Counted from the first letter of the stretch, positions 9,557 to 27,338 are shown. The stretch: DNA of 64,000 nucleotides from Escherichia coli (GCF_001677475.2 NZ_CP015229.1); one strand, 5' to 3'. The notes: a model not told the origin generated them from the sequence alone. A program made the numbers and translations.

Positions 9557-10747
9557 ATGATGAAAACTGTTAATGAGCTGATTAAGGATATCAATTCGCT
9601 GACCTCTCACCTTCACGAGAAAGATTTTTTGTTAACGTGGGAACAGACGCCAGATGAACTGAAACAAGTACTGGACGTTGCCGCAGCATTAAAAGCACTG
9701 CGTGCTGAAAACATCTCAACCAAAGTCTTTAATAGTGGATTAGGTATTTCCGTATTCCGCGACAACTCCACCCGTACCCGCTTCTCTTATGCTTCCGCGC
9801 TTAACCTGCTCGGCCTTGCACAGCAAGATCTCGACGAAGGCAAATCACAAATCGCTCACGGCGAAACCGTGCGTGAAACCGCCAATATGATCTCCTTCTG
9901 CGCCGATGCCATCGGTATTCGTGACGATATGTATCTGGGCGCAGGCAACGCTTATATGCGTGAAGTTGGCGCTGCACTTGATGACGGCTACAAGCAGGGC
10001 GTACTGCCGCAGCGTCCGGCTTTAGTGAACCTTCAATGCGATATTGACCACCCGACTCAGTCAATGGCTGACCTCGCATGGTTACGTGAACACTTTGGTT
10101 CGCTGGAAAACCTGAAAGGTAAAAAAATCGCCATGACCTGGGCCTACTCCCCAAGCTATGGCAAACCGCTCTCTGTACCACAAGGTATCATCGGCCTGAT
10201 GACTCGCTTCGGTATGGATGTCACCCTGGCCCATCCGGAAGGCTACGACCTGATCCCGGATGTCGTTGAAGTCGCTAAAAACAATGCTAAAGCCTCCGGC
10301 GGTAGCTTCCGTCAGGTCACCAGCATGGAAGAAGCCTTCAAAGACGCAGACATCGTTTATCCGAAGTCATGGGCACCTTACAAAGTGATGGAAGAGCGTA
10401 CTGAATTGCTGCGTGCGAACGACCACGAAGGCTTAAAAGCACTGGAAAAACAGTGTCTGGCACAGAACGCGCAACACAAAGACTGGCATTGTACTGAAGA
10501 GATGATGGAACTGACCCGTGATGGCGAAGCCCTGTACATGCACTGCCTGCCAGCTGATATCAGCGGCGTATCCTGTAAAGAAGGTGAAGTGACTGAAGGC
10601 GTATTCGAAAAATACCGTATCGCAACCTACAAAGAAGCCAGCTGGAAGCCTTATATCATCGCCGCGATGATCCTGTCCCGTAAATACGCCAAACCAGGTG
10701 CACTGCTCGAGCAACTGCTGAAAGAAGCGCAAGAACGCGTGAAATAA
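9557..10747 (+). CDS. ygeW: YgeW-type carbamoyltransferase (aspartate/ornithine carbamoyltransferase fold)
   Basis: 396 aa, N-terminus MMKTVNELIKD; contains the carbamoyl-phosphate-binding STRTR motif. Confidence 0.88.
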   Translation: MMKTVNELIKDINSLTSHLHEKDFLLTWEQTPDELKQVLDVAAALKALRAENISTKVFNSGLGISVFRDNSTRTRFSYASALNLLGLAQQDLDEGKSQIAHGETVRETANMISFCADAIGIRDDMYLGAGNAYMREVGAALDDGYKQGVLPQRPALVNLQCDIDHPTQSMADLAWLREHFGSLENLKGKKIAMTWAYSPSYGKPLSVPQGIIGLMTRFGMDVTLAHPEGYDLIPDVVEVAKNNAKASGGSFRQVTSMEEAFKDADIVYPKSWAPYKVMEERTELLRANDHEGLKALEKQCLAQNAQHKDWHCTEEMMELTRDGEALYMHCLPADISGVSCKEGEVTEGVFEKYRIATYKEASWKPYIIAAMILSRKYAKPGALLEQLLKEAQERVK

Positions 10748-10753
10748 CCCCTC

Positions 10754-10775
10754 GGGCCGATCAGCTGGTCGGCCC
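10754..10775 (+). terminator. hairpin GGGCCGA-tcagctgg-TCGGCCC after ygeW
   Basis: Inverted repeat read directly; followed by TCTATTTCC. Confidence 0.4.
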
Positions 10776-10804
10776 TCTATTTCCAGAGGCCAAAAGGATA
10801 GGAT

Positions 10805-12001
10805 ATGTCCGTTTTCTCATTGAAGATTGATATCGCCGATAACAAATTTTTCAACGGCGAAACATCACCGCTCTTTTCGCAAAGCCAGGCCAAACTGGCG
10901 CGCCAGTTCCACCAGAAAATAGCTGGTTATCGCCCAACACCGCTTTGTGCGCTGGACGATCTCGCAAACCTTTTTGGTGTGAAGAAAATTCTCGTCAAAG
11001 ACGAATCAAAACGATTCGGTCTGAACGCCTTCAAAATGCTCGGCGGTGCGTACGCTATCGCTCAATTATTGTGTGAAAAATATCATCTTGATATCGAAAC
11101 GCTGTCATTTGAGCACCTGAAAAATGCCATCGGCGAAAAAATGACCTTTGCGACCACCACCGACGGCAACCACGGGCGCGGTGTGGCATGGGCCGCTCAG
11201 CAACTCGGTCAGAACGCGGTGATTTACATGCCGAAAGGTTCTGCTCAGGAACGCGTTGACGCCATTCTGAACCTCGGTGCCGAGTGCATCGTCACGGATA
11301 TGAACTATGACGATACCGTTCGCCTGACCATGCAACACGCGCAGCAGCACGGCTGGGAAGTGGTACAGGACACGGCATGGGAAGGTTACACAAAAATCCC
11401 AACCTGGATCATGCAAGGCTACGCAACACTGGCAGATGAAGCCGTCGAGCAAATGCGTGAAATGGGCGTAACCCCGACGCACGTTCTGCTGCAAGCCGGT
11501 GTCGGTGCAATGGCCGGTGGTGTGCTGGGTTATCTGGTCGACGTCTACAGCCCGCAAAATCTGCACAGCATTATTGTTGAACCTGACAAAGCTGACTGTA
11601 TTTATCGCTCTGGCGTCAAAGGCGACATCGTCAACGTTGGCGGTGATATGGCCACCATCATGGCAGGCCTGGCCTGTGGCGAACCTAACCCGCTGGGGTG
11701 GGAAATCCTACGTAACTGCGCCACCCAATTCATCTCCTGCCAGGACAGCGTTGCCGCATTAGGTATGCGCGTACTGGGTAATCCGTACGGCAACGATCCA
11801 CGCATCATCTCCGGTGAATCTGGCGCTGTCGGTTTGGGCGTTCTCGCGGCGGTTCATTATCACCCGCAACGTCAAAGCCTGATGGAAAAACTGGCGCTGA
11901 ACAAAGATGCCGTAGTGCTGGTTATCAGCACTGAAGGCGACACCGACGTGAAGCACTACCGCGAAGTTGTCTGGGAAGGCAAACACGCTGTAGCACCTTA
12001 A
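10805..12001 (+). CDS. ygeX: diaminopropionate ammonia-lyase (PLP-dependent)
   Basis: 398 aa; PLP-dependent fold; conserved position after ygeW. Confidence 0.88.
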   Translation: MSVFSLKIDIADNKFFNGETSPLFSQSQAKLARQFHQKIAGYRPTPLCALDDLANLFGVKKILVKDESKRFGLNAFKMLGGAYAIAQLLCEKYHLDIETLSFEHLKNAIGEKMTFATTTDGNHGRGVAWAAQQLGQNAVIYMPKGSAQERVDAILNLGAECIVTDMNYDDTVRLTMQHAQQHGWEVVQDTAWEGYTKIPTWIMQGYATLADEAVEQMREMGVTPTHVLLQAGVGAMAGGVLGYLVDVYSPQNLHSIIVEPDKADCIYRSGVKGDIVNVGGDMATIMAGLACGEPNPLGWEILRNCATQFISCQDSVAALGMRVLGNPYGNDPRIISGESGAVGLGVLAAVHYHPQRQSLMEKLALNKDAVVLVISTEGDTDVKHYREVVWEGKHAVAP

Positions 12002-12058
12002 TCACCCTATTGGAACTACTCCCTGCAAAACGGGGAGTAAAAAATCTGGAGAAAAATA

Positions 12059-13270
12059 ATGGCTAAGAATATTCCATTCAAACTGATTCTTGAAAAAGCA
12101 AAAGATTACCAGGCGGACATGACTCGCTTCCTGCGCGATATGGTTGCGATCCCCAGCGAAAGCTGCGACGAAAAACGCGTAGTACATCGTATTAAAGAAG
12201 AGATGGAAAAAGTCGGCTTCGATAAAGTTGAAATCGACCCGATGGGTAACGTTCTCGGCTATATCGGCCACGGCCCGCGTCTGGTGGCAATGGACGCTCA
12301 TATTGATACCGTCGGCATTGGCAACATCAAAAACTGGGACTTCGATCCGTACGAAGGCATGGAAACTGATGAGCTGATCGGTGGTCGCGGTACTTCCGAC
12401 CAGGAAGGCGGCATGGCATCTATGGTTTATGCCGGTAAAATCATTAAAGACCTCGGTCTGGAAGATGAATATACCCTGCTGGTTACCGGTACGGTGCAGG
12501 AAGAAGACTGCGACGGTCTGTGCTGGCAGTACATTATTGAACAATCCGGCATTCGCCCGGAATTTGTGGTCAGTACCGAACCAACCGACTGCCAGGTATA
12601 CCGTGGTCAGCGCGGTCGTATGGAAATTCGCATTGATGTTCAGGGTGTTAGCTGCCACGGTTCTGCACCAGAACGCGGTGATAACGCCATTTTCAAAATG
12701 GGGCCGATTCTTGGCGAATTACAAGAACTGTCCCAACGTTTGGGCTATGACGAATTCCTCGGCAAAGGCACCCTCACCGTTTCTGAAATCTTCTTCACAT
12801 CCCCAAGCCGTTGCGCTGTAGCAGATAGCTGCGCCGTCTCTATTGACCGCCGTCTGACCTGGGGCGAAACCTGGGAAGGCGCGCTGGACGAAATCCGCGC
12901 CCTGCCTGCAGTACAGAAAGCTAACGCGGTTGTTTCTATGTACAACTACGACCGTCCGTCCTGGACTGGCCTGGTTTACCCAACCGAATGCTATTTCCCG
13001 ACCTGGAAAGTGGAAGAAGATCACTTCACCGTTAAAGCACTGGTGAATGCCTACGAAGGTCTGTTTGGCAAAGCGCCGGTTGTTGATAAGTGGACCTTCT
13101 CAACTAACGGCGTATCTATCATGGGCCGTCACGGCATTCCGGTGATCGGCTTTGGCCCAGGTAAAGAACCTGAAGCGCATGCACCTAACGAAAAAACCTG
13201 GAAATCTCACCTGGTGACCTGTGCCGCGATGTACGCGGCAATCCCGTTAAGCTGGCTGGCAACCGAATAA
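12059..13270 (+). CDS. ygeY: M20-family peptidase / amidohydrolase
   Basis: 403 aa; M20/ArgE/DapE-like metal-binding motifs. Confidence 0.85.
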
Positions 13271-13287
13271 TTACTCTTCACTTATTC

Positions 13288-13312
13288 CCCTCCGGTTCGC
13301 CGGAGGGTTTTT
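13288..13312 (+). terminator. rho-independent terminator-like hairpin CCCTCCGG-ttcg-CCGGAGGG followed by TTTTT, immediately before hyuA
   Basis: 8-bp GC-rich stem, tetraloop and T-tract read directly. Confidence 0.6.
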
Positions 13313-13322
13313 GGAGTTTGCT

Positions 13323-14708
13323 ATGCGCGTATTGATCAAAAACGGCACTGTCGTTAACGCAGATGGACAAGCCAAACAGGATTTGCTGATTGAAAGCGGG
13401 ATTGTTCGCCAGTTGGGCAACAATATTTCGCCGCAGCTCCCGTATGAAGAAATTGATGCCACTGGCTGTTACGTTTTCCCTGGCGGCGTGGATGTCCATA
13501 CGCATTTCAATATTGATGTCGGCATCGCGCGCAGTTGTGATGATTTTTTTACCGGTACCCGCGCAGCTGCGTGTGGCGGTACAACAACCATTATTGACCA
13601 TATGGGATTTGGCCCAAACGGCTGTCGGTTACGCCATCAACTGGAGGTTTATCGTGGCTATGCCGCCCATAAGGCGGTCATCGACTACAGCTTTCATGGT
13701 GTGATCCAGCACATTAATCACGCCATCCTCGACGAAATCCCTATGATGGTCGAGGAAGGGCTGAGCAGTTTTAAACTCTATTTAACCTATCAATACAAAC
13801 TCAACGATGACGAGGTTTTGCAGGCATTACGCCGTCTGCATGAATCCGGCGCGCTGACCACCGTGCACCCGGAAAATGATGCAGCTATCGCCAGCAAGCG
13901 GGCGGAGTTTATCGCCGCAGGGTTAACCGCGCCGCGCTATCACGCCTTGAGTCGCCCTCTGGAATGCGAAGCGGAAGCCATCGCCCGCATGATTAACCTG
14001 GCACAAATTGCCGGTAACGCCCCGCTCTATATCGTGCACCTGTCTAACGGCTTAGGTCTGGATTATCTGCGTCTTGCCCGTGCGAATCACCAGCCAGTCT
14101 GGGTTGAAACCTGCCCACAATATCTCCTGTTGGACGAACGCAGTTACGATACAGAAGATGGCATGAAGTTCATTCTTAGCCCACCGCTGCGTAACGTACG
14201 CGAGCAGGACAAACTGTGGTGTGGCATCAGCGATGGTGCGATTGATGTGGTGGCGACCGATCACTGCACCTTCTCGATGGCGCAACGCCTGCAAATTTCT
14301 AAAGGCGATTTCAGTCGCTGCCCAAATGGCTTACCCGGTGTGGAAAACCGCATGCAGTTACTGTTTTCCAGTGGCGTGATGACGGGACGTATAACACCGG
14401 AACGTTTTGTTGAATTAACCAGCGCAATGCCCGCCAGGCTGTTTGGCCTGTGGCCGCAAAAAGGGATATTAGCGCCCGGTTCCGATGGTGACGTGGTGAT
14501 TATCGACCCACGTCAGAGCCAACAAATTCAGCATCGCCATCTCCACGACAACGCCGACTACTCGCCCTGGGAGGGGTTTACCTGTCAGGGCGCGATTGTC
14601 AGAACATTATCCCGTGGTGAAACGATTTTCTGTGACGGCAGCTTTACAGGCAAAGCCGGGCGAGGTCGTTTCCTGCGACGCAAACCGTTTGTCCCTCCCG
14701 TGCTCTAA
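13323..14708 (+). CDS. hyuA: D-phenylhydantoinase / dihydropyrimidinase-family cyclic amidohydrolase
   Basis: Translation from MRVLIKNGTVVNADGQ; metal-dependent hydrolase motifs (GGVDVHTH); the supplied ORF starts 4 codons earlier inside the terminator. Confidence 0.88.
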   Translation: MRVLIKNGTVVNADGQAKQDLLIESGIVRQLGNNISPQLPYEEIDATGCYVFPGGVDVHTHFNIDVGIARSCDDFFTGTRAAACGGTTTIIDHMGFGPNGCRLRHQLEVYRGYAAHKAVIDYSFHGVIQHINHAILDEIPMMVEEGLSSFKLYLTYQYKLNDDEVLQALRRLHESGALTTVHPENDAAIASKRAEFIAAGLTAPRYHALSRPLECEAEAIARMINLAQIAGNAPLYIVHLSNGLGLDYLRLARANHQPVWVETCPQYLLLDERSYDTEDGMKFILSPPLRNVREQDKLWCGISDGAIDVVATDHCTFSMAQRLQISKGDFSRCPNGLPGVENRMQLLFSSGVMTGRITPERFVELTSAMPARLFGLWPQKGILAPGSDGDVVIIDPRQSQQIQHRHLHDNADYSPWEGFTCQGAIVRTLSRGETIFCDGSFTGKAGRGRFLRRKPFVPPVL

Positions 14709-14755
14709 CCACTGCCAGGGATCTATACACAATCAAGAATGATGAGTGAGGAAAA

Positions 14756-15688
14756 ATGAGTAAGAAAATTGTTCTCGCCCTGGGCGGGAATGCGCTGGGC
14801 GACGACCTGGCCGGACAAATGAAAGCGGTAAAAATTACTTCTCAGGCAATTGTTGATTTAATTGCCCAGGGACATGAGGTCATCGTCACTCACGGTAACG
14901 GGCCACAGGTGGGCATGATTAACCAGGCCTTTGAAGCTGCCGCAAAAACTGAAGCGCACTCGCCAATGCTGCCGATGTCTGTCTGTGTTGCCTTAAGCCA
15001 GGGCTATATTGGTTACGATCTACAAAACGCCTTAAGAGAAGAACTGCTTTCTCGTGGCATTAATAAACCTGTAGCAACGCTGGTTACCCAGGTCGAAGTC
15101 GATGCTAACGATCCGGCATTCCTCAACCCGACCAAGCCGATCGGTTCGTTCTTTACCGAGCAGGAAGCAGAGCAACTGACAAAACAGGGTTACACTCTGA
15201 AAGAAGATGCTGGTCGCGGCTATCGCCGTGTTGTTGCCTCGCCAAAACCGGTTGATATCATTGAAAAAGAAACGGTTAAAGCTCTGGTAGATGCAGGTCA
15301 GGTGGTGATCACCGTTGGCGGTGGTGGTATTCCTGTTATTCGTGAAGGTAACCATCTGCGTGGTGCCAGCGCGGTTATTGATAAAGACTGGGCCAGCGCC
15401 CGTTTAGCAGAAATGATTGATGCCGATATGCTGATCATTCTGACTGCGGTAGAAAAAGTGGCCATTAACTTCGGTAAAGAGAATGAACAGTGGCTCGATC
15501 GCCTGTCATTAAGTGATGCTGAACGCTTTATCGAAGAAGGTCATTTTGCGAAAGGTTCTATGCTGCCTAAAGTGGAAGCAGCCGCCTCGTTTGCTCGCTC
15601 TCGCGCAGGTCGTGAAGCACTGATTACCGTATTGAGCAAAGCGAAAGAAGGGATTGAAGGCAAAACCGGAACGGTGATTTGTCAGTAA
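14756..15688 (+). CDS. yqeA: carbamate kinase-like protein
   Basis: 310 aa; amino-acid kinase fold (MSKKIVLALGGNAL). Confidence 0.88.
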   Translation: MSKKIVLALGGNALGDDLAGQMKAVKITSQAIVDLIAQGHEVIVTHGNGPQVGMINQAFEAAAKTEAHSPMLPMSVCVALSQGYIGYDLQNALREELLSRGINKPVATLVTQVEVDANDPAFLNPTKPIGSFFTEQEAEQLTKQGYTLKEDAGRGYRRVVASPKPVDIIEKETVKALVDAGQVVITVGGGGIPVIREGNHLRGASAVIDKDWASARLAEMIDADMLIILTAVEKVAINFGKENEQWLDRLSLSDAERFIEEGHFAKGSMLPKVEAAASFARSRAGREALITVLSKAKEGIEGKTGTVICQ

Positions 15689-15694
15689 TTTAAA

Positions 15695-15727
15695 GGCCGG
15701 GTGGGTAATACCATCCGGCCATTTTCA
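15695..15727. terminator. bidirectional hairpin GGCCGGGTGG-gtaata-CCATCCGGCC between convergent yqeA and yqeB
   Basis: 10-bp stem (one G-U pair) followed by ATTTTCATTT. Confidence 0.6.
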
Positions 15728-15728
15728 T

Positions 15729-17354
15729 TTAAGCCACTTCCAGCACTTCTTTTGTCGCTTTAACGCCCTGATGCATCAACATCATTAACGCCTCAAGTAC
15801 GCCGCCGCCAATTGCCCGGGCTTTATCAGAAACGCTGGTGAAATCAGCCGTTTCACCACGTGGATCGATATCACCAATTTTAAAACCACCGACCACCGCC
15901 AGTCCGTCGTTCAACAAGCCACGCACCATCCCCGTCAACGGTGCTTTAATTTCATGCTCACCAATCCAGGCAATCACATCGCCCTCTTTCACCAGATCGC
16001 CTAATTTCACGTTGGATCGCATAATGCCTGCAGCAGGAGCACGGATCACCCGTCGGGTGGTATGCCCCATAATATTGCCGGGAACACCGGTATTCTCCTG
16101 CGCACAACCAGAGTAAATCACCTGACCGAGCCAGTGCCCGCGATTTGTTTCAATTACCGCGTGGCAATCCTTCCCAGCAGTAAAGCCCGGCCCAAGCGCG
16201 ATTGTTACTGGTGCCATGTCTGCCCGCGTACCCAAATTCTGTTTCGCCAGAATAGCGTCCACCACGCAAAGCGGTTTCAGTTCATCAAGCAATGAACAGG
16301 CGGGATCTACCATCACAGGGATGAATCCGCGTTCGGTAAGTTTCATCGCTTCCGCAGAGCTGGTTGCCAGGCGGGCAGTGACGCCTTCGACCGTCATTTC
16401 GCCATCGAACACGGCCTGGGCAAACGCCACGGTACAACGAATCACTGTCGGTTGTTCCACTTCCAGCATGATCACTTTAAAACCCGCATGATACAGACGT
16501 AGCGCCACACCACTGGCGATATCCCCCGCACCGCGAATCACCACCAGCTGGTGTCCGGAAGGATGAGAAGGTTTCATCATCAGCCCACCCGGCGCGTTAT
16601 TTTTCACCTGTAATATTTCTGCCAGCACGCTGATGGCGATCTCCTGCGGCGTTTCCGCACCTATGTTGTAACCAACGGGCGCATGTAAACGGGCAATATG
16701 TTCTTCAGCCACGCCTTTTTCACGAAGTTGACGCAAGAAAAGCTGAACCTTGCGACGACTTGCCAGCAACCCCAGCCATGCAATGGGCTGTTCAATGAGT
16801 TTGTCGAGGGCTTCACGATCCTGATTATTCGTGGCAATCAGGACAAAATTATCATGGCGAATATCCAGTGCTTCCACTGCCGCACCAAACGACTCAGCAT
16901 GGAGAAGCGTGGTTGATGGTGGAAATAATTCAGGATTAAGGCTTTCGCGATAAATATCGGCAACGGCAATTTCAAATCCTAATAGCGCCGCACTTTGGGC
17001 TATCGCCCGGTTGACATGCCCCGCGCCAATCAACACCAGACGAGGACGCATACCATGGACGCTGATAAACACGGACATTGCACCTCCACAATCTGACCCG
17101 ACAGCATCCACACCGTTACGAGCCATACGTCCATGGAATAATCGCGGCTTACGCTCCTGCAATGCCTGAAGCGACTCTTCAATCACCTTCCGCTCAACCA
17201 TTCCGCCACCAATTGTACCGACGATAGAGCCATCGGCGCGCACTAACATTTGTGCAGAATGGCGGGGAGTCGAGCCTCGGCTATCAACAATTTGCGCCAT
17301 CGCAAACGGACAATTTTGCTCTTCGAGTTTTGCAGCCTCTGTGAAAATATTCAT
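15729..17354 (-). CDS. yqeB: YqeB; XdhC/CoxI-like molybdenum-hydroxylase maturation protein (selenium-dependent molybdenum hydroxylase marker)
   Basis: 541 aa; XdhC-like accessory domains; partner of yqeC. Confidence 0.85.
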   Translation of the reverse strand: MNIFTEAAKLEEQNCPFAMAQIVDSRGSTPRHSAQMLVRADGSIVGTIGGGMVERKVIEESLQALQERKPRLFHGRMARNGVDAVGSDCGGAMSVFISVHGMRPRLVLIGAGHVNRAIAQSAALLGFEIAVADIYRESLNPELFPPSTTLLHAESFGAAVEALDIRHDNFVLIATNNQDREALDKLIEQPIAWLGLLASRRKVQLFLRQLREKGVAEEHIARLHAPVGYNIGAETPQEIAISVLAEILQVKNNAPGGLMMKPSHPSGHQLVVIRGAGDIASGVALRLYHAGFKVIMLEVEQPTVIRCTVAFAQAVFDGEMTVEGVTARLATSSAEAMKLTERGFIPVMVDPACSLLDELKPLCVVDAILAKQNLGTRADMAPVTIALGPGFTAGKDCHAVIETNRGHWLGQVIYSGCAQENTGVPGNIMGHTTRRVIRAPAAGIMRSNVKLGDLVKEGDVIAWIGEHEIKAPLTGMVRGLLNDGLAVVGGFKIGDIDPRGETADFTSVSDKARAIGGGVLEALMMLMHQGVKATKEVLEVA

Positions 17355-17401
17355 ACCAACCTCAATGGATATCCTTTCAGTAACCCGGAATACCCGGGCC
17401 G

Positions 17402-18172
17402 CTAATTCACAAATCTGCGCGCGATTGCAGGATGTTCTTGTATATCGCCCAGCCAGATTGCCTCTACGTTGTGTTGTTGCAGCGGTTGAAGGAGCTCGCT
17501 TTGCGCAATCGCATTCTCACATTGAGAAAAACGGTTAATGAACCAGACTCGCCGACAACCTTGCGGTACGTTTTTAAATGCGCCCTGAGGGTGGCGAACC
17601 AGCGCAACGAGATCGCTCAGTTGCAAGGTTGCATCAGGTGTTAACCCGGTAATATCAGCAAACTGCGACCAGCGATGGACATTTTCTGTGCTCACTTTCG
17701 CACCCAAAATATGTCCTCCCATCACAGCAATCACGCAGCAACTGCTTTTGGGTATGCAAGGTTCGTGCTCATCAGGCGCTTTTAACGGCATTCCACGCGA
17801 GCCATCTGCCTCAATGAGAATTACGTCACACTCTGGTCGTTGCACCAGTGCATCAATCGCTTCTGGCGTAAATCCCTGCACTTTTCCCTGGTTCGCTTTC
17901 CAGCTGTGAAAACAAAATGAAATGGGGGATGTAAGAGACGTATGAGGAAGCATGGCGGGATCACGACAGAAAACCACGGGCCAGTGAGACGTTGGCATAA
18001 ACATATGTGTCGTCGTAGTGATTAACACACGCCTGCCGCTAGCCTGGAGTAGTTCTGCCAGCCAAAAAAGCAAGCTGGTTTTCCCCCCAGCACCAACAAC
18101 AGAAATCACAGTGGGACGTTTCTGCGCGCCTAAATCAATGAATAATGCCGATGGGTCAACTATACTTTTCAC
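17402..18172 (-). CDS. yqeC: YqeC; P-loop protein (second selenium-dependent molybdenum hydroxylase marker)
   Basis: 256 aa; Walker A-like VVGAGGKTS near the N-terminus. Confidence 0.85.
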   Translation of the reverse strand: MKSIVDPSALFIDLGAQKRPTVISVVGAGGKTSLLFWLAELLQASGRRVLITTTTHMFMPTSHWPVVFCRDPAMLPHTSLTSPISFCFHSWKANQGKVQGFTPEAIDALVQRPECDVILIEADGSRGMPLKAPDEHEPCIPKSSCCVIAVMGGHILGAKVSTENVHRWSQFADITGLTPDATLQLSDLVALVRHPQGAFKNVPQGCRRVWFINRFSQCENAIAQSELLQPLQQHNVEAIWLGDIQEHPAIARRFVN

Positions 18173-18274
18173 GAGTCTTTATGACCTCTCTGGGATAAAT
18201 TACCCCCAACTTAATCCATCAGGAAGTAACGCAATTATCAGGCGTTATTAGCCCCTATAAATAATGGAACCACT

Positions 18275-18853
18275 ATGTCAGCCATCGACTGTATAATTAC
18301 CGCTGCCGGATTATCATCAAGAATGGGGCAATGGAAAATGATGTTACCCTGGCAACAGGGAACAATTCTTGATACAAGTATCAAAAATGCGTTGCAGTTT
18401 TGTAGCCGAATTATTTTAGTCACCGGCTATCGTGGTAATGAACTGCACGAACGTTATGCGAACCAGAGCAATATCACTATTATACACAACCCAGATTATG
18501 CGCAGGGTTTACTAACATCAGTAAAGGCCGCAGTACCCGCGGTAAAAACAGAATATTGTTTTCTCACCCACGGTGACATGCCTACCCTCACCATCGATAT
18601 TTTTAGAAAAATCTGGTCGTTACGAAATGATGGCGCAATACTGCCACTCCATAATGGCATTCCCGGCCATCCGATTTTAGTGTCAAAGCCATGCCTGATG
18701 CAGGCAATCCAGCGTCCCAATATCACCAATATGCGTCAAGCACTCCTTATGGGAGAACATTATTCCGTCGAAATAGAAAATGCAGAAATAATTTTAGATA
18801 TTGATACTCCAGACGACTTTATTACAGCGAAAAAAAGGTATACTGAAATTTAG
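18275..18853 (+). CDS. mocA: molybdenum cofactor cytidylyltransferase
   Basis: 192 aa; MobA-like nucleotidyltransferase (N-terminus ITAAGLSSRMG). Confidence 0.88.
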   Translation: MSAIDCIITAAGLSSRMGQWKMMLPWQQGTILDTSIKNALQFCSRIILVTGYRGNELHERYANQSNITIIHNPDYAQGLLTSVKAAVPAVKTEYCFLTHGDMPTLTIDIFRKIWSLRNDGAILPLHNGIPGHPILVSKPCLMQAIQRPNITNMRQALLMGEHYSVEIENAEIILDIDTPDDFITAKKRYTEI

Positions 18854-19087
18854 AAAACGTAGTTAAACGATTGCGTTCAAATATTTAACCCTTCCAGTTC
18901 TCTTTATCATAATGATAAGGAATCACTGATTTTGAGAAAAGAGAAAAAGTGATAAATGGGTTGCCAATAATAATTTCCAGGAGTGATTTTAATTCTCATT
19001 TGGCACCTGTGAGTTCATTCACAAAAAGCCCCTAAGTTTCGAGCCGCCTCACATTTTTTTATATTTCCCGCCAAACCTGGCAAGAGT

Positions 19088-19174: not shown

Positions 19175-22100
19175 ATGGGGGATATTATGCGTCCCATTCC
19201 GTTTGAGGAACTTTTGACGCGCATATTTGATGAATACCAACAACAACGCTCAATCTTTGGTATTCCCGAGCAACAGTTTTACTCACCCGTAAAAGGTAAA
19301 ACTGTTAGCGTCTTCGGTGAAACCTGTGCCACTCCCGTCGGCCCTGCCGCTGGCCCGCACACGCAGCTCGCGCAAAATATTGTCACTTCCTGGCTGACTG
19401 GCGGACGCTTCATCGAACTAAAAACCGTCCAAATTCTTGACCGCCTGGAGCTGGAAAAGCCCTGTATCGATGCCGAAGACGAGTGCTTTAACACCGAATG
19501 GTCTACCGAATTTACCCTGCTTAAAGCCTGGGATGAATACCTCAAAGCCTGGTTTGCCCTGCACCTTCTCGAAGCGATGTTCCAGCCTTCTGATTCCGGT
19601 AAATCGTTCATCTTTAATATGAGCGTCGGTTACAACCTCGAAGGTATTAAGCAACCGCCGATGCAACAGTTCATCGACAATATGATGGACGCATCTGACC
19701 ATCCGAAATTCGCTCAATATCGCGATACACTGAATAAATTACTCCAGGATGACGCATTTTTAACCCACCACGGATTGCAGGAAAAGCGCGAAAGCTTGCA
19801 AGCCTTACCCGCTCGCATCCCCACCAGCATGGTGCAGGGCGTCACCCTCTCCACCATGCACGGCTGTCCTCCGCATGAAATTGAAGCCATTTGCCGCTAC
19901 ATGCTGGAAGAAAAAGGGCTCAATACCTTTGTGAAACTCAACCCGACCTTACTGGGGTACGCGCGTGTTCGTGAGATCCTCGATGTCTGCGGTTTCGGTT
20001 ACATAGGCTTAAAAGAAGAGTCATTTGATCACGACCTCAAGCTGACGCAAGCGCTGGAAATGCTGGAACGCCTGATGTCACTGGCAAAAGAAAAATCACT
20101 CGGCTTTGGCGTAAAACTGACTAACACTCTCGGCACCATCAACAATAAAGGCGCACTGCCTGGTGAAGAGATGTATATGTCAGGCCGTGCGCTGTTCCCG
20201 CTCTCCATCAATGTTGCAGCAGTTCTCTCTCGCGCCTTTGACGGCAAACTGCCCATTTCTTATTCCGGTGGTGCCAGTCAGCTGACTATCCGCGATATTT
20301 TTGATACTGGTATTCGCCCTATTACTATGGCAACCGACCTGCTGAAACCTGGCGGCTATCTGCGCTTAAGTGCCTGCATGCGCGAGCTGGAAGGCTCCGA
20401 CGCCTGGGGGCTTGACCATGTTGACGTCGAACGACTGAACAAACTGGCAGCAGACGCGTTAACCATGGAATACACCCAGAAACACTGGAAGCCAGAAGAG
20501 CGTATTGAAGTGGCAGAAGACCTGCCGCTGACCGACTGCTACGTTGCCCCCTGTGTTACTGCCTGCGCTATCAAGCAAGATATTCCGGAATACATCCGTT
20601 TGCTTGGCGAACATCGCTATGCTGACGCGCTGGAACTCATCTACCAACGCAACGCCCTGCCCGCCATTACCGGTCATATTTGCGATCACCAGTGCCAATA
20701 CAACTGTACCCGCCTGGATTACGACAGTGCGCTGAATATCCGTGAACTGAAAAAAGTCGCGCTGGAAAAAGGTTGGGATGAATATAAGCAACGCTGGCAC
20801 AAACCAGCCGGTTCTGGTTCACGCCATCCGGTTGCCGTGATTGGTGCAGGTCCGGCGGGTCTGGCAGCAGGTTACTTCCTTGCCAAAGCGGGCCATCCGG
20901 TTACGCTGTTTGAACGCGAAGCCAATGCGGGCGGCGTGGTGAAAAATATCATTCCTCAGTTCCGTATTCCTGCAGAGTTAATTCAGCACGATATCGATTT
21001 TGTTGCCGCTCACGGCGTGAAATTTGAGTATGGCTGCTCACCCGATCTGACCGTTGAACAGTTAAAAAATCAGGGCTTCCACTATGTCCTGATTGCCACC
21101 GGCACTGATAAAAATAGCGGTGTGAAACTGGCGGGCGACAACCAAAATGTCTGGAAATCACTCCCCTTCCTGCGTGAATACAACAAGGGCACAGCGCTCA
21201 AGCTGGGCAAACATGTGGTCGTTGTCGGGGCGGGTAACACGGCAATGGACTGCGCTCGTGCGGCGTTACGCGTTCCAGGCGTAGAAAAAGCAACGGTCGT
21301 TTACCGTCGTTCACTGCAAGAGATGCCAGCATGGCGCGAAGAGTATGAAGAAGCGTTGCACGACGGTGTGGAGTTCCGTTTCCTGAATAATCCGGAACGT
21401 TTCGATGCTGATGGCACCTTAACCTTGCGCGTTATGTCGCTTGGCGAACCTGATGAAAAAGGTCGTCGCCGTCCGGTTGAAACCAACGAAACAGTAATAC
21501 TGCATGTAGACAGCCTGATCACCGCCATTGGTGAACAGCAGGATACTGAAGCCCTGAATGCGATGGGCGTGCCGCTGGACAAAAACGGCTGGCCAGACGT
21601 CGACCATAATGGCGAAACTCGTCTGACTGACGTCTTTATGATCGGCGACGTACAGCGCGGACCATCCTCCATTGTCGCTGCTGTCGGAACCGCGCGTCGG
21701 GCGACCGATGCCATCCTTAGTCGGGAAAATATCCGTTCCCACCAGAGCGATAAATACTGGAATAACGTCAATCCGGCGGAAATCTATCAACGCAAAGGCG
21801 ATATCTCTATCACCCTGGTGGATAGCGACGATCGTGACGCGTTTGTCGCCCAGGAAGCCGCACGCTGCCTTGAATGTAACTACGTTTGCAGCAAGTGTGT
21901 GGATGTCTGCCCGAACCGCGCCAACGTATCCATTGCGGTCCCTGGCTTCCAGAACCGTTTCCAGACGCTGCACCTCGATGCTTACTGTAACGAATGCGGC
22001 AACTGCGCTCAGTTCTGTCCGTGGAACGGTAAACCGTACAAAGACAAAATCACCGTCTTCAGCCTGTCGCAAGACTTTGATAACAGCAGCAACCCTGGCT

Positions 22101-22273
22101 TCCTTGTGGAAGATTGCCGGGTACGAGTACGTCTGAATAACCAAAGCTGGGTGTTAAGCATCGACAGCGAAGGTCAGTTCAACAACGTACCACCGGAGCT
22201 GAACGATATGTGCCGCATCATTAGCCATGTCCACCAGCATCATCATTATCTGCTGGGCCGTGTGGAGGTGTAA
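19175..22273 (+). CDS. ygfK: large Fe-S / FAD-NAD(P) oxidoreductase (putative selenate reductase-type subunit YgfK)
   Basis: 1032 aa; Rossmann GxGxxG motifs ([24 protein letters not shown]) and C-terminal cysteine clusters; continuous frame with no internal stop. Confidence 0.88.
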   Translation: MGDIMRPIPFEELLTRIFDEYQQQRSIFGIPEQQFYSPVKGKTVSVFGETCATPVGPAAGPHTQLAQNIVTSWLTGGRFIELKTVQILDRLELEKPCIDAEDECFNTEWSTEFTLLKAWDEYLKAWFALHLLEAMFQPSDSGKSFIFNMSVGYNLEGIKQPPMQQFIDNMMDASDHPKFAQYRDTLNKLLQDDAFLTHHGLQEKRESLQALPARIPTSMVQGVTLSTMHGCPPHEIEAICRYMLEEKGLNTFVKLNPTLLGYARVREILDVCGFGYIGLKEESFDHDLKLTQALEMLERLMSLAKEKSLGFGVKLTNTLGTINNKGALPGEEMYMSGRALFPLSINVAAVLSRAFDGKLPISYSGGASQLTIRDIFDTGIRPITMATDLLKPGGYLRLSACMRELEGSDAWGLDHVDVERLNKLAADALTMEYTQKHWKPEERIEVAEDLPLTDCYVAPCVTACAIKQDIPEYIRLLGEHRYADALELIYQRNALPAITGHICDHQCQYNCTRLDYDSALNIRELKKVALEKGWDEYKQRWHKPAGSGSRHPVAVIGAGPAGLAAGYFLAKAGHPVTLFEREANAGGVVKNIIPQFRIPAELIQHDIDFVAAHGVKFEYGCSPDLTVEQLKNQGFHYVLIATGTDKNSGVKLAGDNQNVWKSLPFLREYNKGTALKLGKHVVVVGAGNTAMDCARAALRVPGVEKATVVYRRSLQEMPAWREEYEEALHDGVEFRFLNNPERFDADGTLTLRVMSLGEPDEKGRRRPVETNETVILHVDSLITAIGEQQDTEALNAMGVPLDKNGWPDVDHNGETRLTDVFMIGDVQRGPSSIVAAVGTARRATDAILSRENIRSHQSDKYWNNVNPAEIYQRKGDISITLVDSDDRDAFVAQEAARCLECNYVCSKCVDVCPNRANVSIAVPGFQNRFQTLHLDAYCNECGNCAQFCPWNGKPYKDKITVFSLSQDFDNSSNPGFLVEDCRVRVRLNNQSWVLSIDSEGQFNNVPPELNDMCRIISHVHQHHHYLLGRVEV

Positions 22274-22275
22274 TC

Positions 22276-23604
22276 ATGTTGATTCTGAAGAATGTCACCG
22301 CAGTGCAGTTACACCCAGCGAAAGTGCAGGAAGGCGTTGATATCGCCATCGAAAATGATGTGATTGTCGCTATCGGCGATGCCCTGACGCAACGCTACCC
22401 CGATGCCAGCTACAAAGAGATGCATGGTCGGATTGTGATGCCAGGAATTGTCTGCTCGCACAACCATTTTTACTCGGGGCTGTCCCGCGGAATTATGGCA
22501 AACATCGCCCCCTGCCCGGATTTCATCTCAACGCTGAAAAATCTCTGGTGGCGACTCGATCGCGCCCTTGATGAAGAGTCGCTCTATTACAGCGGACTGA
22601 TTTGTTCCCTGGAAGCGATTAAGAGCGGATGTACATCGGTTATCGATCACCATGCCTCTCCGGCGTATATCGACGGGTCGCTCTCCACATTGCGCAACGC
22701 ATTTTTAAAAGTTGGCCTGCGCGCGATGACCTGTTTTGAAACTACTGACCGTAACAACGGCATCAAAGAGTTGCAGGAAGGTGTAGAAGAAAACATCCGC
22801 TTCGCCCGTCAGATTGATGAGGCGAAGAAAGCAGCAACTGAGCCGTATCTGGTGGAAGCACATATCGGCGCTCACGCGCCGTTTACCGTGCCGGATGCCG
22901 GTCTGGAAATGCTGCGCGAAGCCGTAAAAGCCACTGGGCGTGGTTTACACATTCACGCTGCTGAAGATCTTTACGACGTTTCTCACAGTCACCACTGGTA
23001 CGGCAAAGATCTGCTGGCACGGCTGGCGCAATTCGATCTTATCGATAGCAAAACGCTGGTCGCCCACGGCCTGTATCTGTCGAAAGAGGATATCGCCCTG
23101 CTTAATCAGCATGACGCGTTCCTGGTACATAACGCCCGCTCCAACATGAATAACCATGTTGGTTACAACCATCATCTTAGCGATATCCGCAATCTGGCAC
23201 TGGGAACCGATGGTATCGGTTCAGACATGTTTGAAGAGATGAAATTCGCCTTCTTTAAACATCGTGACGCTGGTGGTCCGCTGTGGCCTGACAGTTTTGC
23301 CAAAGCCCTGACTAACGGCAACGAACTAATGAGTCGCAACTTTGGTGCGAAATTCGGCCTTCTGGAAGCCGGTTATAAAGCTGATTTAACCATTTGCGAT
23401 TACACCTCGCCAACGCCGTTGCTGGCGGACAATATCGCCGGGCATATCGCTTTCGGTATGGGCTCAGGCAGCGTTCACAGCGTGATGGTCAATGGTGTGA
23501 TGGTCTATGAAGACCGACAGTTTAACTTCGATTGCGATTCCATTTATGCGCAAGCCAGAAAAGCCGCTGCCAGTATGTGGCGTCGGATGGATGCGCTGGC
23601 ATAA
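22276..23604 (+). CDS. ssnA: amidohydrolase-family protein (cytosine/guanine deaminase-like)
   Basis: 442 aa; metal-dependent hydrolase HxH motif (SHNHF); 2-bp gap from ygfK. Confidence 0.88.
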   Translation: MLILKNVTAVQLHPAKVQEGVDIAIENDVIVAIGDALTQRYPDASYKEMHGRIVMPGIVCSHNHFYSGLSRGIMANIAPCPDFISTLKNLWWRLDRALDEESLYYSGLICSLEAIKSGCTSVIDHHASPAYIDGSLSTLRNAFLKVGLRAMTCFETTDRNNGIKELQEGVEENIRFARQIDEAKKAATEPYLVEAHIGAHAPFTVPDAGLEMLREAVKATGRGLHIHAAEDLYDVSHSHHWYGKDLLARLAQFDLIDSKTLVAHGLYLSKEDIALLNQHDAFLVHNARSNMNNHVGYNHHLSDIRNLALGTDGIGSDMFEEMKFAFFKHRDAGGPLWPDSFAKALTNGNELMSRNFGAKFGLLEAGYKADLTICDYTSPTPLLADNIAGHIAFGMGSGSVHSVMVNGVMVYEDRQFNFDCDSIYAQARKAAASMWRRMDALA

Positions 23605-23654
23605 ATGACAAATACCCTCTTCCCGTAGGGAAGAGGGTTAAATAAGGAAAGAAG

Positions 23655-24434
23655 ATGATTGAACAATTTTTTAGGCCCGACTCTGTCGAACAGGCGCTGG
23701 AACTGAAGCGCTGCTACCAGGATGAAGCCGTCTGGTTCGCCGGGGGCAGCAAACTCAACGCTACACCAACCCGTACCGATAAAAAGATTGCCATTTCCTT
23801 ACAGGATCTGGAACTGGACTGGGTTGACTGGGATAACGGTGCACTGCGGATTGGCGCAATGTCTCGCTTGCAGTCACTGCGTGATGCGCGATTTATTCCT
23901 GCAGCACTGCGTGAAGCCCTCGGCTTTGTCTACTCTCGCCATGTTCGTAATCAGTCGACCATTGGTGGTGAAATCGCCGCCCGGCAGGAAGAGTCTGTGC
24001 TGCTTCCCGTCCTGCTGGCACTGGATGCTGAACTGGTTTTTGGCAATGGCGAAACACTGTCAATCGAAGAGTACCTGGCCTGCCCATGCGATCGCCTGCT
24101 AACCGAAATTATCATTAAAGATCCGTATCGCACCTGTGCGACCCGCAAAATTAGCCGTTCTCAGGCAGGTTTAACCGTCGTGACGGCAGCCGTTGCAATG
24201 ACAGACCACGACGGTATGCGAATTGCGCTGGATGGCGTCGCCAGTAAAGCCCTGCGTCTGCACGATGTTGAAAAACAAAATCTGGAAGGCAATGCACTTG
24301 AACAGGCTGTCGCCAACGCCATTTTCCCGCAGGAAGATTTGCGGGGCAGCGTGGCCTATAAACGCTATATCACGGGAGTTCTGGTAGCCGACCTGTATGC
24401 CGACTGCCAACAGGCTGGGGAGGAAGCCGTATGA
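23655..24434 (+). CDS. ygfM: FAD-binding subunit of a molybdopterin dehydrogenase
   Basis: 259 aa; CO dehydrogenase flavoprotein-like (AGGSKLN). Confidence 0.85.
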   Translation: MIEQFFRPDSVEQALELKRCYQDEAVWFAGGSKLNATPTRTDKKIAISLQDLELDWVDWDNGALRIGAMSRLQSLRDARFIPAALREALGFVYSRHVRNQSTIGGEIAARQEESVLLPVLLALDAELVFGNGETLSIEEYLACPCDRLLTEIIIKDPYRTCATRKISRSQAGLTVVTAAVAMTDHDGMRIALDGVASKALRLHDVEKQNLEGNALEQAVANAIFPQEDLRGSVAYKRYITGVLVADLYADCQQAGEEAV

Positions 24435-27310: not shown

Positions 27311-27338
27311 GGCCGCTTCGGCGGCCTGTTTCTCTGTT
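27311..27338 (+). terminator. rho-independent terminator GGCCGC-ttcg-GCGGCC followed by a T-rich run, after xdhD
   Basis: Stem-loop and T-rich tail read directly. Confidence 0.6.

Follow-up and report, generated by a model that had tools for sequence, protein, structure and literature searches.

Stabilising hairpins between cistrons are known, e.g., the REP element between malE and malF and the hairpins in the puf operon of Rhodobacter. Pathway stoichiometry is said to have been the subject of the Rend-seq work of Lalanne et al. 2018. For ABC-importer operons of Ruminiclostridium, PMC9045158 describes experimentally validated internal terminators, which set stoichiometry and have a U content below that of operon-end terminators.

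The locus described here lies in a window of 64,000 nucleotides, i.e., the whole stretch of DNA which was analysed, from Escherichia coli (GCF_001677475.2, NZ_CP015229.1). Like the malE-malF REP and the puf hairpins, it contains stable stem-loops just 3' of a cistron and without a U-tract, which could block 3' exonucleases and could lead to segmental differences in mRNA stability; unlike the malE-malF REP, its hairpins are unique sequences within the window. As with the stoichiometry-setting terminators of PMC9045158, GC-rich stem-loops of lower U content stand between co-directional genes, and the predicted effect would be the same, with upstream genes expressed more strongly than downstream genes. 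The differences from those terminators are three successive hairpin junctions with a single clear U-tract, and termination which is predicted. In the literature searched, the urate-pathway papers describe neither the hairpins nor the transcript architecture, full-text searches with the gene names retrieved no account of the hairpins, and transcript 3' ends, northern blots or half-lives for this operon were looked for without result. The elements are of an ordinary kind in a well-studied operon; what is new is the conservation and covariation of the hairpins.

The five-gene module and urate degradation

ORF listing of the window showed five co-directional genes on the + strand, ygeW, ygeX, ygeY, hyuA and yqeA, at the coordinates given in an earlier note on this DNA, and RefSeq carries the same five genes at the orthologous E. 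coli locus as ygeW, dpaL, ygeY, hyuA and arcC. All products exceeded the curated NCBIfam cut-offs (equivalog-level matches): ygeW (9557-10747) encodes a knotted carbamoyltransferase (NF005538, 825 bits, cut-off 453; TIGR03316, 675 bits, cut-off 500), ygeX/dpaL (10805-12001) a PLP-dependent 2,3-diaminopropionate ammonia-lyase (TIGR03528, 651 bits, cut-off 532), ygeY (12059-13270) an M20-family hydrolase (TIGR03526, 722 bits, cut-off 321.5), hyuA (13323-14708) a D-hydantoinase-type cyclic amidohydrolase (TIGR02033, 675 bits, cut-off 393) and yqeA/arcC (14756-15688) a carbamate kinase (TIGR00746, 386 bits, cut-off 358). The proteins are 99-100% identical to annotated E. coli orthologues, and gene order is unchanged. 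RefSeq places the start of ygeW at 9560, one codon downstream of 9557. The hyuA ORF also contains an in-frame TTG at 13311; the ATG at 13323 is the start in orthologues and in RefSeq.

The five genes make up a distal module, encoding the last steps of anaerobic reductive urate (2,8-dioxopurine) degradation. This pathway was reconstituted in vitro with E. coli enzymes by Li et al. 2025 (PMC12507026) and by Liu et al. 2025 (bioRxiv 10.1101/2025.04.24.650524), and the functions of the five enzymes have been established by this published enzymology. According to both papers, HyuA opens the ring of ureidomethyl-hydantoin (UMH) to give 2,3-diureidopropionate, YgeW phosphorolyses one of its ureido groups to carbamoyl phosphate, YgeY hydrolyses the other, yielding diaminopropionate, and YgeX converts diaminopropionate to pyruvate and 2 NH3; they disagree on which ureido group is taken by YgeW. 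YqeA forms ATP from carbamoyl phosphate and ADP, ATP being produced by YgeW and YqeA together (bioRxiv 10.1101/2025.04.24.650524). Anaerobic growth on urate and adenine is lost on deletion of ygeW-arcC. The cluster described in the two papers for E. coli and gut anaerobes has the same genes in the same order, with no difference at the protein level. The enzyme assignments of the earlier note were right, as judged from NCBIfam cut-offs, RefSeq and enzymology. Its proposed route from a ring-opened purine or hydantoin-like intermediate to carbamoyl phosphate and ATP was shown experimentally in 2025 (PMC12507026; bioRxiv 10.1101/2025.04.24.650524), and its statement that the substrate chain was not fully defined is therefore out of date.

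The coupling of phosphorolysis to ATP synthesis resembles that of the arginine deiminase pair, ornithine carbamoyltransferase and carbamate kinase, an analogy drawn explicitly by Liu et al. (bioRxiv 10.1101/2025.04.24.650524). Unlike ornithine carbamoyltransferase, YgeW acts on 2,3-diureidopropionate, not citrulline, and it belongs to a distinct knotted subfamily (133 bits against the ornithine carbamoyltransferase model, cut-off 281).

The window also encodes ygeV, xdhABC, ygfK, ssnA, ygfM, xdhD, yqeB and yqeC; the upstream-pathway enzymes XdhD-YgfM, YgfK and SsnA are encoded near the five-gene module. ORFs 19175-22273, 22276-23604, 23655-24434 and 24431-27301 exceed the cut-offs of TIGR03315, TIGR03314, TIGR03312 and TIGR03313, respectively. 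The divergent ygeV (7302-9080, - strand; RefSeq at the orthologous locus) encodes a sigma-54 enhancer-binding regulator with strong NCBIfam matches to the sigma-54 interaction domain, and is regarded in the literature as putative activator of the regulon.

Hairpins in the spacers and their conservation

The hairpin before hyuA (13288-13312, + strand), CCCTCCGG-TTCG-CCGGAGGG followed by U5, was evident from the sequence and from a terminator scan. Its stem-loop (13288-13307) begins 17 nt after the TAA of ygeY and consists of 8 bp, 7 of them GC, closed by a UUCG loop; the T5 tract (13308-13312) ends exactly 10 nt before the hyuA ATG at 13323, as the earlier note had described. The Shine-Dalgarno sequence of hyuA, GGAG (13313-13316, + strand), 6 nt before the ATG, directly abuts U5; when related loci are aligned, [CT]GGAG or GAGG recurs here as a conserved feature. 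Folding of the 52-nt spacer gave -18.4 kcal/mol versus -11.3 +/- 2.6 for shuffled sequences (z -2.8, 2/200). The terminator score d, calculated with modern energy parameters, was about +29, compared with +1.5 for the hairpin at the operon end. In all its sequence features the element looks like a canonical intrinsic terminator, more so than the operon-end hairpin.

Two further hairpins had been missed by the earlier note. One, at 10754-10775 (+ strand), 6 nt after the ygeW stop, is the strongest internal hairpin: GGGCCGATC-AGCT-GGTCGGCCC forms 9 pairs, 7 of them GC, in the scan for terminator-like structures. Its tail TCTATTTCC has an interrupted 5 T of 8 (d about -4.6), and the fold of the ygeW-ygeX spacer is unexceptional for its composition (z -1.07). 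The distance from this hairpin to the ygeX Shine-Dalgarno sequence is about 30 nt. The other, at the operon end (15695-15720, + strand; GGCCGGGTGG-GTAATA-CCATCCGGCC, tail ATTTTCATTT, 10 pairs in the terminator scan), lies between the convergent yqeA and yqeB (fold z -6.23). The hyuA-yqeA spacer is without structure when its fold is compared with shuffles (z +0.7).

After ygeX, the hairpin at 12017-12039 (+ strand) was found in sequence and fold where the earlier note had placed it, with the stem TACTCCCTG/CGGGGAGTA, the loop CAAAA and then A6; the stem UACUCCCUG/CGGGGAGUA comprises 9 bp, including one G-U pair, around the 5-nt loop. For this spacer, folding gave -15.3 kcal/mol versus -8.3 +/- 2.2 for shuffles (z -3.3, 1/200). 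Since A6 follows, not T, the structure is not terminator-like; it was absent from the output of the terminator scan, and with the tail AAAAAATC its d was about -60. What the earlier note suggested, namely that transcripts terminate internally, are attenuated or differ in stability, is reasonable at 13288-13312, with its terminator features; at 12017-12039, which has no U-tract, termination is not a reasonable proposal.

For comparative analyses 80 related loci were used, and the ygeY-hyuA spacer was scored in 72, ygeW-ygeX in 68 and ygeX-ygeY in 69 of them. A ygeY-hyuA hairpin of -14 kcal/mol or lower was present in 70/72 loci, versus 22% in coding or shuffled controls; the same threshold was reached between ygeW and ygeX in 60/68 loci, and between ygeX and ygeY in only 24/69, the hairpin being absent where that spacer is 19-33 nt. 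Covariation was determined by explicit counting of pairs on the MAFFT alignment and on an alignment refined with a covariance model (CM). For ygeY-hyuA, the sequence-only alignment yielded 86% paired versus 74%, 43 versus 15 double-change cells and a score of 0.317 versus 0.149 after shuffling (0.352 in the CM-refined alignment). The corresponding values for ygeW-ygeX were 89.9% versus 80.3% paired, 49 versus 17 double-change cells and 0.373 versus 0.186, with slid controls of 0.02-0.16; ygeX-ygeY scored 0.336 versus 0.203, with compensatory changes at 7/8 pairs. At each junction 0/500 shuffles scored as high; shuffled means for the three hairpins were 0.15-0.20, and slid controls 0.16 or less. 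Compensatory changes are thus well above both types of control, and we therefore regard the three hairpins as selected structures. From the plain MAFFT alignment RNAalifold obtained only a weak consensus of 5 pairs, because MAFFT aligns without regard to structure. By comparative sequence analysis, then, three of the four intergenic spacers have been shown to hold stable GC-rich hairpins maintained through compensatory substitutions.

The tails behave differently. Counted, like d, on hairpins with contiguous stems, at least 5 T of 8 occurred in 3/58 relatives for ygeW-ygeX, 0/34 for ygeX-ygeY and 10/62 for ygeY-hyuA (d > 0 in 16/62), versus 25/54 at the operon end. Among the internal hairpins a clear U-tract is found only at ygeY-hyuA, in Escherichia and some other genera. 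In the sequences compared, the feature conserved across genera is the hairpin, not the U-tract, a point which the earlier note had missed; in most genera, therefore, it cannot be for termination that the hairpin is conserved. Within Escherichia, stem and U-tract were unchanged in the seven variants examined, with loop and flanks varying. The 86-nt ygeY-hyuA junction was found in 5163 E. coli genomes, a count in which all genomes that match the junction carry it.

Transcription of the module and function of the hairpins

A sigma-54 type -24/-12 promoter element, TGGCACAGTTATTGT (9451-9465, + strand), is located about 90 nt upstream of ygeW and differs at one position from the consensus used, TGGCAC-N5-TTGC. 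Such an element was detected 79-122 nt upstream of ygeW in 34/69 related loci, and binding of sigma-54 RNA polymerase was mapped by gSELEX to the ygeV/ygeW spacer (PMC8743547). A separate sigma-54 promoter for hyuA was considered and rejected, since none of 72 loci has such an element in the spacer or in the final 150 nt of ygeY. The YgeV iModulon contains hyuA together with ygeWXY, and in engineered E. coli the insertion of one promoter ahead of ygeW led to more flux through the whole pathway. Since the U-tract is only 10 nt from the hyuA ATG, every hyuA mRNA crosses the hairpin.

These data suggest that the module would be transcribed as a single unit from the promoter at 9451-9465 under YgeV, and that the hairpins act on the mRNA. 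We consider it probable, on the sequence features above, that leaky internal termination together with protection of 3' ends produces graded expression from one sigma-54 promoter. The pre-hyuA hairpin of Escherichia (8-bp GC stem, UUCG, U5) would be both a leaky intrinsic terminator and a 3'-end cap, and transcripts of ygeW-ygeX-ygeY should outnumber read-through transcripts with hyuA-yqeA. The ygeW and ygeX hairpins, and likewise the U-poor ygeY-hyuA hairpins of most other genera, may be mainly weak terminators or barriers to 3'-to-5' exonucleases. The expected outcome is W >= X >= Y > hyuA/yqeA; in short, the hairpins most likely set the amount of each enzyme. A hint of polarity could be seen in metabolites: albizziin, a YgeY substrate according to Li et al. 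(PMC12507026), accumulates only in the promoter-insertion strain, and UMH, the substrate of HyuA, was detected in this strain and, when glucose was omitted, in the wild type also. The build-up of metabolites in an engineered strain has other possible causes.

The hairpins could instead act in translation, by insulating ribosome binding sites from upstream structure or re-initiating ribosomes, or as a structured standby platform. In nearly all loci with short spacers the ygeY-hyuA hairpin ends 1-10 nt before the hyuA Shine-Dalgarno sequence, and this distance is kept where 170-310 nt of repeat DNA are inserted upstream (loci L003, L053 and L009), a position with which a hyuA-side role is equally compatible; neighbouring operons of the regulon use overlapping or abutting genes instead. 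We regard this function nevertheless as rather unlikely, since pairing of the hyuA Shine-Dalgarno sequence with the nucleotides that follow the ygeY stop was no better than in controls (P(unpaired) 0.37 versus 0.33 with shuffled flanks, 40 loci), the ygeW hairpin is distant from the ygeX Shine-Dalgarno sequence, and other direct support was not found. A translational-coupling switch, in which an outer helix with these nucleotides would mask the hyuA Shine-Dalgarno sequence, was rejected on the same values; the pyrimidine-rich flank pairs trivially with GGAG.

Slightly less plausible still is efficient termination before hyuA, with ygeWXY and hyuA-yqeA as separate units and a hyuA promoter inside ygeY. 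The top terminator score of the operon at 13288-13312 and the use of "ygeWXY operon" in some literature would agree with it, as would the spacers of Photobacterium and Aeromonas, which have large U-tailed hairpins and, with 100-365 nt, space for a promoter. However, with the 10-nt gap in Escherichia a promoter upstream of the terminator would still have to read through; besides the missing sigma-54 element, no sigma-70-like match was detected near 13100-13300 on the + strand, and within the YgeV iModulon hyuA varies together with ygeWXY.

It is improbable that hairpin and Shine-Dalgarno sequence before hyuA form a regulated checkpoint and not a fixed valve. If they did, a pathway signal, an RNA-binding protein or coupling to the ribosome would switch either read-through into hyuA-yqeA or the translation of these genes. 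Expression would thereby be partitioned, with the enzymes for ring opening and ATP formation on one side and those of ygeWXY on the other, and the layout of three hairpins would represent a conserved form of RNA-level control that is specific to the urate operon. Very improbable is a regulated attenuator in the strict sense, where read-through is conditional and depends on a metabolite, on ribosome coupling or on an RNA-binding protein. A terminator directly ahead of a gene whose expression is required, with a stem under strong purifying selection, invites this idea, but the 52-nt spacer is too small for an aptamer, no Rfam match was obtained (E <= 1; 7000-19000, both strands), and no conserved alternative pairing was found, such pairing being no better than control; the attenuation which the earlier note had suggested thus finds no sequence support. 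The U-tract is, moreover, lost in most genera, and the ygeY stop is 17 nt upstream of the hairpin, farther than a terminating ribosome usually reaches. That the hairpins are chance palindromes or functionless mobile-repeat copies is scarcely credible in spite of the abundance of terminator-like patterns (19 found versus 13 expected in a 12-kb stretch) and the ygeW-ygeX fold of z -1.07, given the position conserved across genera with compensatory changes (70/72 loci versus 22% in controls). An origin from REP or other mobile repeats was rejected, as each hairpin sequence occurs once in the 64-kb window (<=3 mismatches allowed; no REP/BIME-like copies).

Graded expression by leaky termination and 3'-end protection would have practical consequences. 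Probiotic E. coli strains are being engineered with this operon for lowering urate in gout models, a single constitutive promoter having been placed upstream of ygeW; a terminator 10 nt before hyuA and two hairpins upstream would cap the HyuA/YqeA output of such designs, and could explain the intermediates accumulating in the engineered strain. The operon is also a clean natural case in which internal hairpin structure is conserved across genera and the U-tract is not.

Operon annotations in use are inconsistent, being ygeW, ygeWXY or ygeW-arcC, and the naming splits at exactly these hairpins, with "ygeW" alone in PMC8743547 and "ygeWXY" elsewhere.

The gene block and its pathway

Five co-directional open reading frames on the + strand (9557-10747, 10805-12001, 12059-13270, 13323-14708 and 14756-15688) make up the block which RefSeq names ygeW, dpaL (ygeX), ygeY, hyuA and arcC (yqeA) in the matching E. 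coli genomes; all five products scored above the curated cut-offs of NCBIfam equivalog models. Neighbours of the block are ygeV, which lies on the opposite strand, and the convergent yqeB and yqeC; the genes for earlier pathway steps, ygfK, ssnA, ygfM and xdhD, are also inside the window. A 6.4-kb query (window 9400-15800) located the same block in 5161 out of 5426 complete genomes of E. coli. Since the highest full-length DNA identity to any of these over the 6.4 kb was 98.6%, the window does not belong to strain K-12. The 86-nt ygeY|hyuA junction (spacers are named by their flanking genes) is 100% identical to that of strains such as O157:H7. From its sequence, the window may stem from a divergent or mosaic Escherichia lineage.

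The metabolic role of the module is already settled, since the pathway was reconstituted with E. coli proteins by Li et al. (2025; PMC12507026) and Liu et al. (2025; bioRxiv 10.1101/2025.04.24.650524). According to both papers, urate is reduced by XdhD-YgfM to 2,8-dioxopurine, which YgfK and SsnA dearomatise and open at the six-membered ring, yielding ureidomethyl-hydantoin; the hydantoin is in turn opened by HyuA, with 2,3-diureidopropionate as the product, phosphorolysis by YgeW takes off one ureido group, YqeA forms ATP from carbamoyl phosphate and ADP, YgeY hydrolyses the other ureido group, and YgeX converts 2,3-diaminopropionate to pyruvate and ammonia. A ygeW-arcC deletion is known to abolish anaerobic growth on urate and adenine. 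Thus, the earlier note was right in proposing that a ring-opened purine or hydantoin-like intermediate yields carbamoyl phosphate and then ATP, and its remark that the substrate chain was not fully defined is outdated. The two papers disagree on regiochemistry. In the scheme of Li et al. (PMC12507026), YgeW cleaves the 2-ureido group, so that albizziin (3-ureido-2-aminopropionate) is formed, and YgeY acts on the 3-ureido group; in that of Liu et al. (bioRxiv 10.1101/2025.04.24.650524), YgeW cleaves the 3-ureido group, with 3-amino-2-ureidopropanoate as the product, and YgeY acts on the 2-ureido group.

For comparison, 80 related loci (HyuA identity 64-99%) were taken from a one-genome-per-species scan; they came from Enterobacterales, Aeromonas, Photobacterium and a few Betaproteobacteria. 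The gene order, with ygeV divergent from ygeW-ygeX-ygeY-hyuA-yqeA, was kept in nearly all of them. Reduced loci consisting of divergent ygeV, ygeX and hyuA, without ygeW, ygeY and yqeA, were seen in Serratia marcescens, Symbiopectobacterium and Lonsdalea (L060, L072, L080). In Photobacterium loci (L061, L073-L075, L077, L079, L081, L082) the product of the gene 3' of hyuA has only 38-40% identity to YqeA and thus belongs to another carbamate-kinase lineage; the ygeY|hyuA spacers of these loci, 257-365 nt long, contain large U-tailed hairpins.

Structure and conservation of the internal hairpins

The ygeY|hyuA hairpin (13288-13307, +; CCCTCCGG-TTCG-CCGGAGGG) is directly followed by a T5 tract (13308-13312), the Shine-Dalgarno sequence GGAG (13313-13316) and the hyuA ATG at 13323, all on the same strand; hairpin and T5 (13288-13312) are as the earlier note had described them. 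The 9-bp hairpin which it had placed 3' of ygeX (12017-12039, +) is also present, but not terminator-like, since A6 and not T follows the stem. Overlooked at that time was a GC-rich 9-bp hairpin directly 3' of ygeW (10754-10775, +), which was detected, like the operon-end hairpin (15695-15720, +), by a consensus terminator scan. When the spacers were folded against 200 dinucleotide shuffles each, z-scores were -2.8 for ygeY|hyuA, -3.3 for ygeX|ygeY, -1.1 for ygeW|ygeX and -6.2 for the operon end; no structure was found in the hyuA|yqeA spacer (z = +0.7). Terminator-like patterns as such were not rare in a 12-kb stretch (19 found, 13 expected), and the four strongest were all located exactly within intergenic gaps. 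No second copy of either internal hairpin sequence was seen in the 64-kb window, and an Rfam search of 7000-19000 on both strands gave no match at E ≤ 1.

Among the relatives, the most stable single hairpin of each spacer reached -14 kcal/mol or lower in 70/72 loci for ygeY|hyuA, 60/68 for ygeW|ygeX, 24/69 for ygeX|ygeY and 9/76 for hyuA|yqeA, compared with 22% both in 55-nt coding windows of the same loci and in shuffled spacers. The ygeY|hyuA stems differ in sequence among genera with pairing retained (CCCTCCGG/CCGGAGGG, TCCCGCCGC/GCGGCGGGA, GCCCCGGCA/TGCCGGGGT, CCCCGAAGG/CCTTCGGGG). In a sequence-only MAFFT alignment of 42 distinct ygeY|hyuA spacers, 86% of cells were paired (74% in shuffles), both sides had changed in 43 cells (15 in shuffles), and the covariation score was 0.317 versus 0.149, a value attained by 0/500 shuffles; controls with slid partners, which preserve relatedness, gave 0.05-0.10. 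A covariance model built from this alignment recovered the junction in 42 sources, i.e., the window and 41 loci (E ≤ 0.016), with only two marginal matches elsewhere (E 0.48 and 0.79), and the refined alignment was 89.9% paired with a score of 0.352. Scores for ygeW|ygeX (0.373 versus 0.186) and ygeX|ygeY (0.336 versus 0.203) were likewise attained by 0/500 shuffles, with low values for slid controls. Within E. coli, the 86-nt junction was present at ≥ 95% identity in all 5163 genomes matching it; aligned Escherichia variants have identical stem and U-tract and differ in their flanks and in the loop, which reads TTCG or TTTA. Conservation and covariation, measured against the controls, thus mark the three internal hairpins as selected structures.

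As a set of genes the module was known before. Its hairpins, undescribed in the literature searched, exemplify a well-known kind of element, namely internal terminators and intercistronic stabilisers. The original observation of genes and hairpins stands and is extended; its interpretation is partly supported.

Transcription through the hairpins and alternative readings (ALTERNATIVES)

Contiguous-stem hairpins with U-rich tails (at least 5 T in 8 nt) were counted in 3/58 cases after ygeW, 0/34 after ygeX, 10/62 before hyuA and 25/54 after yqeA, at the operon end; by these counts the U-tract is not the conserved feature. An approximate terminator score d (d'Aubenton-Carafa type, with ViennaRNA energies) was +29 for the ygeY|hyuA element of the window, +1.5 for the operon-end hairpin, -4.6 for the ygeW hairpin and -60 for the ygeX hairpin. 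For ygeY|hyuA it was positive in 16/62 loci (Escherichia, some Citrobacter, Hafnia, Morganella and some Aeromonas); in most Enterobacteriaceae the stem is followed by a gap of 1-10 nt and the Shine-Dalgarno sequence, e.g., GGCGGGAG-TCT-GGAG. Klebsiella oxytoca and Raoultella are examples in which the hairpin has no U-tract. In their low U content the internal hairpins resemble experimentally studied internal terminators which set operon stoichiometry and which are reported to contain less U than terminal ones (PMC9045158).

About 90 nt 5' of ygeW there is a -24/-12 element of the sigma-54 type (TGGCACAGTTATTGT, 9451-9465), which is kept at -79 to -122 in 34/69 loci; across 72 loci, neither the 3' end of ygeY nor the ygeY|hyuA spacer contained such an element. 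By gSELEX, sigma-54 RNA polymerase was located to the ygeV/ygeW spacer (PMC8743547). Flux along the entire pathway rose when one constitutive promoter was inserted before ygeW (Li et al. 2025, PMC12507026). The genes listed for the YgeV iModulon include ygeW, ygeX, ygeY and hyuA; yqeA, the last gene, is absent. Publications name the unit inconsistently ("ygeW" alone, "ygeWXY", "ygeW-dpaL-ygeY-hydA-arcC"), and these divisions fall exactly at the hairpins.

Most likely, the hairpins attenuate a single sigma-54 transcript and stabilise it segment by segment. In Escherichia, the ygeY|hyuA element would be an intrinsic terminator with some read-through and would also cap the 3' end; hairpins poor in U would either terminate weakly or hold up exonucleases, and ygeW/X/Y message would exceed hyuA/yqeA message. 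In the promoter-insertion strain of Li et al. (PMC12507026), and only there, albizziin, their YgeY substrate, accumulates; ureidomethyl-hydantoin, the HyuA substrate, was detected in that strain and in the wild type without glucose. The proposed imbalance fits this metabolite pattern, which is indirect evidence for it. The hairpins have some practical relevance to the engineering of urate-degrading probiotics.

An action on translation, by insulation of the hyuA ribosome-binding site, is suggested by the fixed closeness of the ygeY|hyuA hairpin to the Shine-Dalgarno sequence. Moreover, GC-rich repeat DNA of 170-310 nt (with motifs such as CCCTCTCCCC...GGGGAGAGGGTTAGGGTGAGGG) is inserted in this spacer in four loci (L003, 5774-5950; L053, 5786-5950; L009, 5744-5960; L049, 5638-5940) from Escherichia sp. 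E1V33, E. whittamii, Klebsiella indica and Serratia oryzae, in each case 5' of the hairpin, which still adjoins the hyuA ribosome-binding site. In the one specific test, on sequestration of the Shine-Dalgarno sequence by an outer helix, the loci did no better than the control. Fully separate transcription of ygeWXY and hyuA-yqeA is plausible in Photobacterium and Aeromonas, with their long spacers, but unlikely in Escherichia, because the U-tract ends only 10 nt before hyuA begins and every hyuA mRNA must therefore be transcribed through the hairpin. Regulated attenuation at ygeY|hyuA found no support in the sequence, and chance palindromes or mobile repeats are excluded by covariation and by the uniqueness of the sequences within the window.

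Neighbouring motifs and repeats

In the ygeV/ygeW spacer, about 45 bp 5' of the -24 element, a CRP-like half-palindrome (TGTGA-TCAACC-CCACA, 9392-9407) fits the catabolite repression and "native Crp-binding site" mentioned by Li et al. (PMC12507026). Another, small helix 3' of the ygeW hairpin (CCTCT/AGAGG, 10774-10789; CTCC/GGAG in Citrobacter) seems to covary too. Directly 5' of the ygeX start is a tandem GGA pair (AAGGATAGGAT, 10790-10804; consensus AAGGATAAGGA in relatives), nearly invariant across Enterobacteriaceae (alignment A3, columns about 66-78), which could be a strong Shine-Dalgarno sequence only, or a CsrA-type binding site.

In many E. coli genomes an additional 180 bp or so lies between yqeA and yqeB (e.g., 9300-9490 in the related locus L001); this insert contains REP-like palindromes (GCCGGATGCGGCG..., GTAGGCCTGATAAGCG...) and has a copy of the operon-end hairpin GGCCGGGTGGGTAATACCATCCGGCC on either side. 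It is missing from the window (equivalent 15689-15728) and from some other genomes. A perfect 11-bp hairpin (ACCCTCTTCCC-GTA-GGGAAGAGGGT, 23614-23638, +) also occupies the ssnA|ygfM spacer, the sole sizeable one in the adjacent operon, which serves the same pathway; at the other junctions there (ygfK|ssnA, ygfM|xdhD, xdhA|xdhB|xdhC) the genes overlap or abut. Located 3' of xdhD is a bidirectional hairpin (GGCCGCTTCGGCGGCC, 27311-27326).
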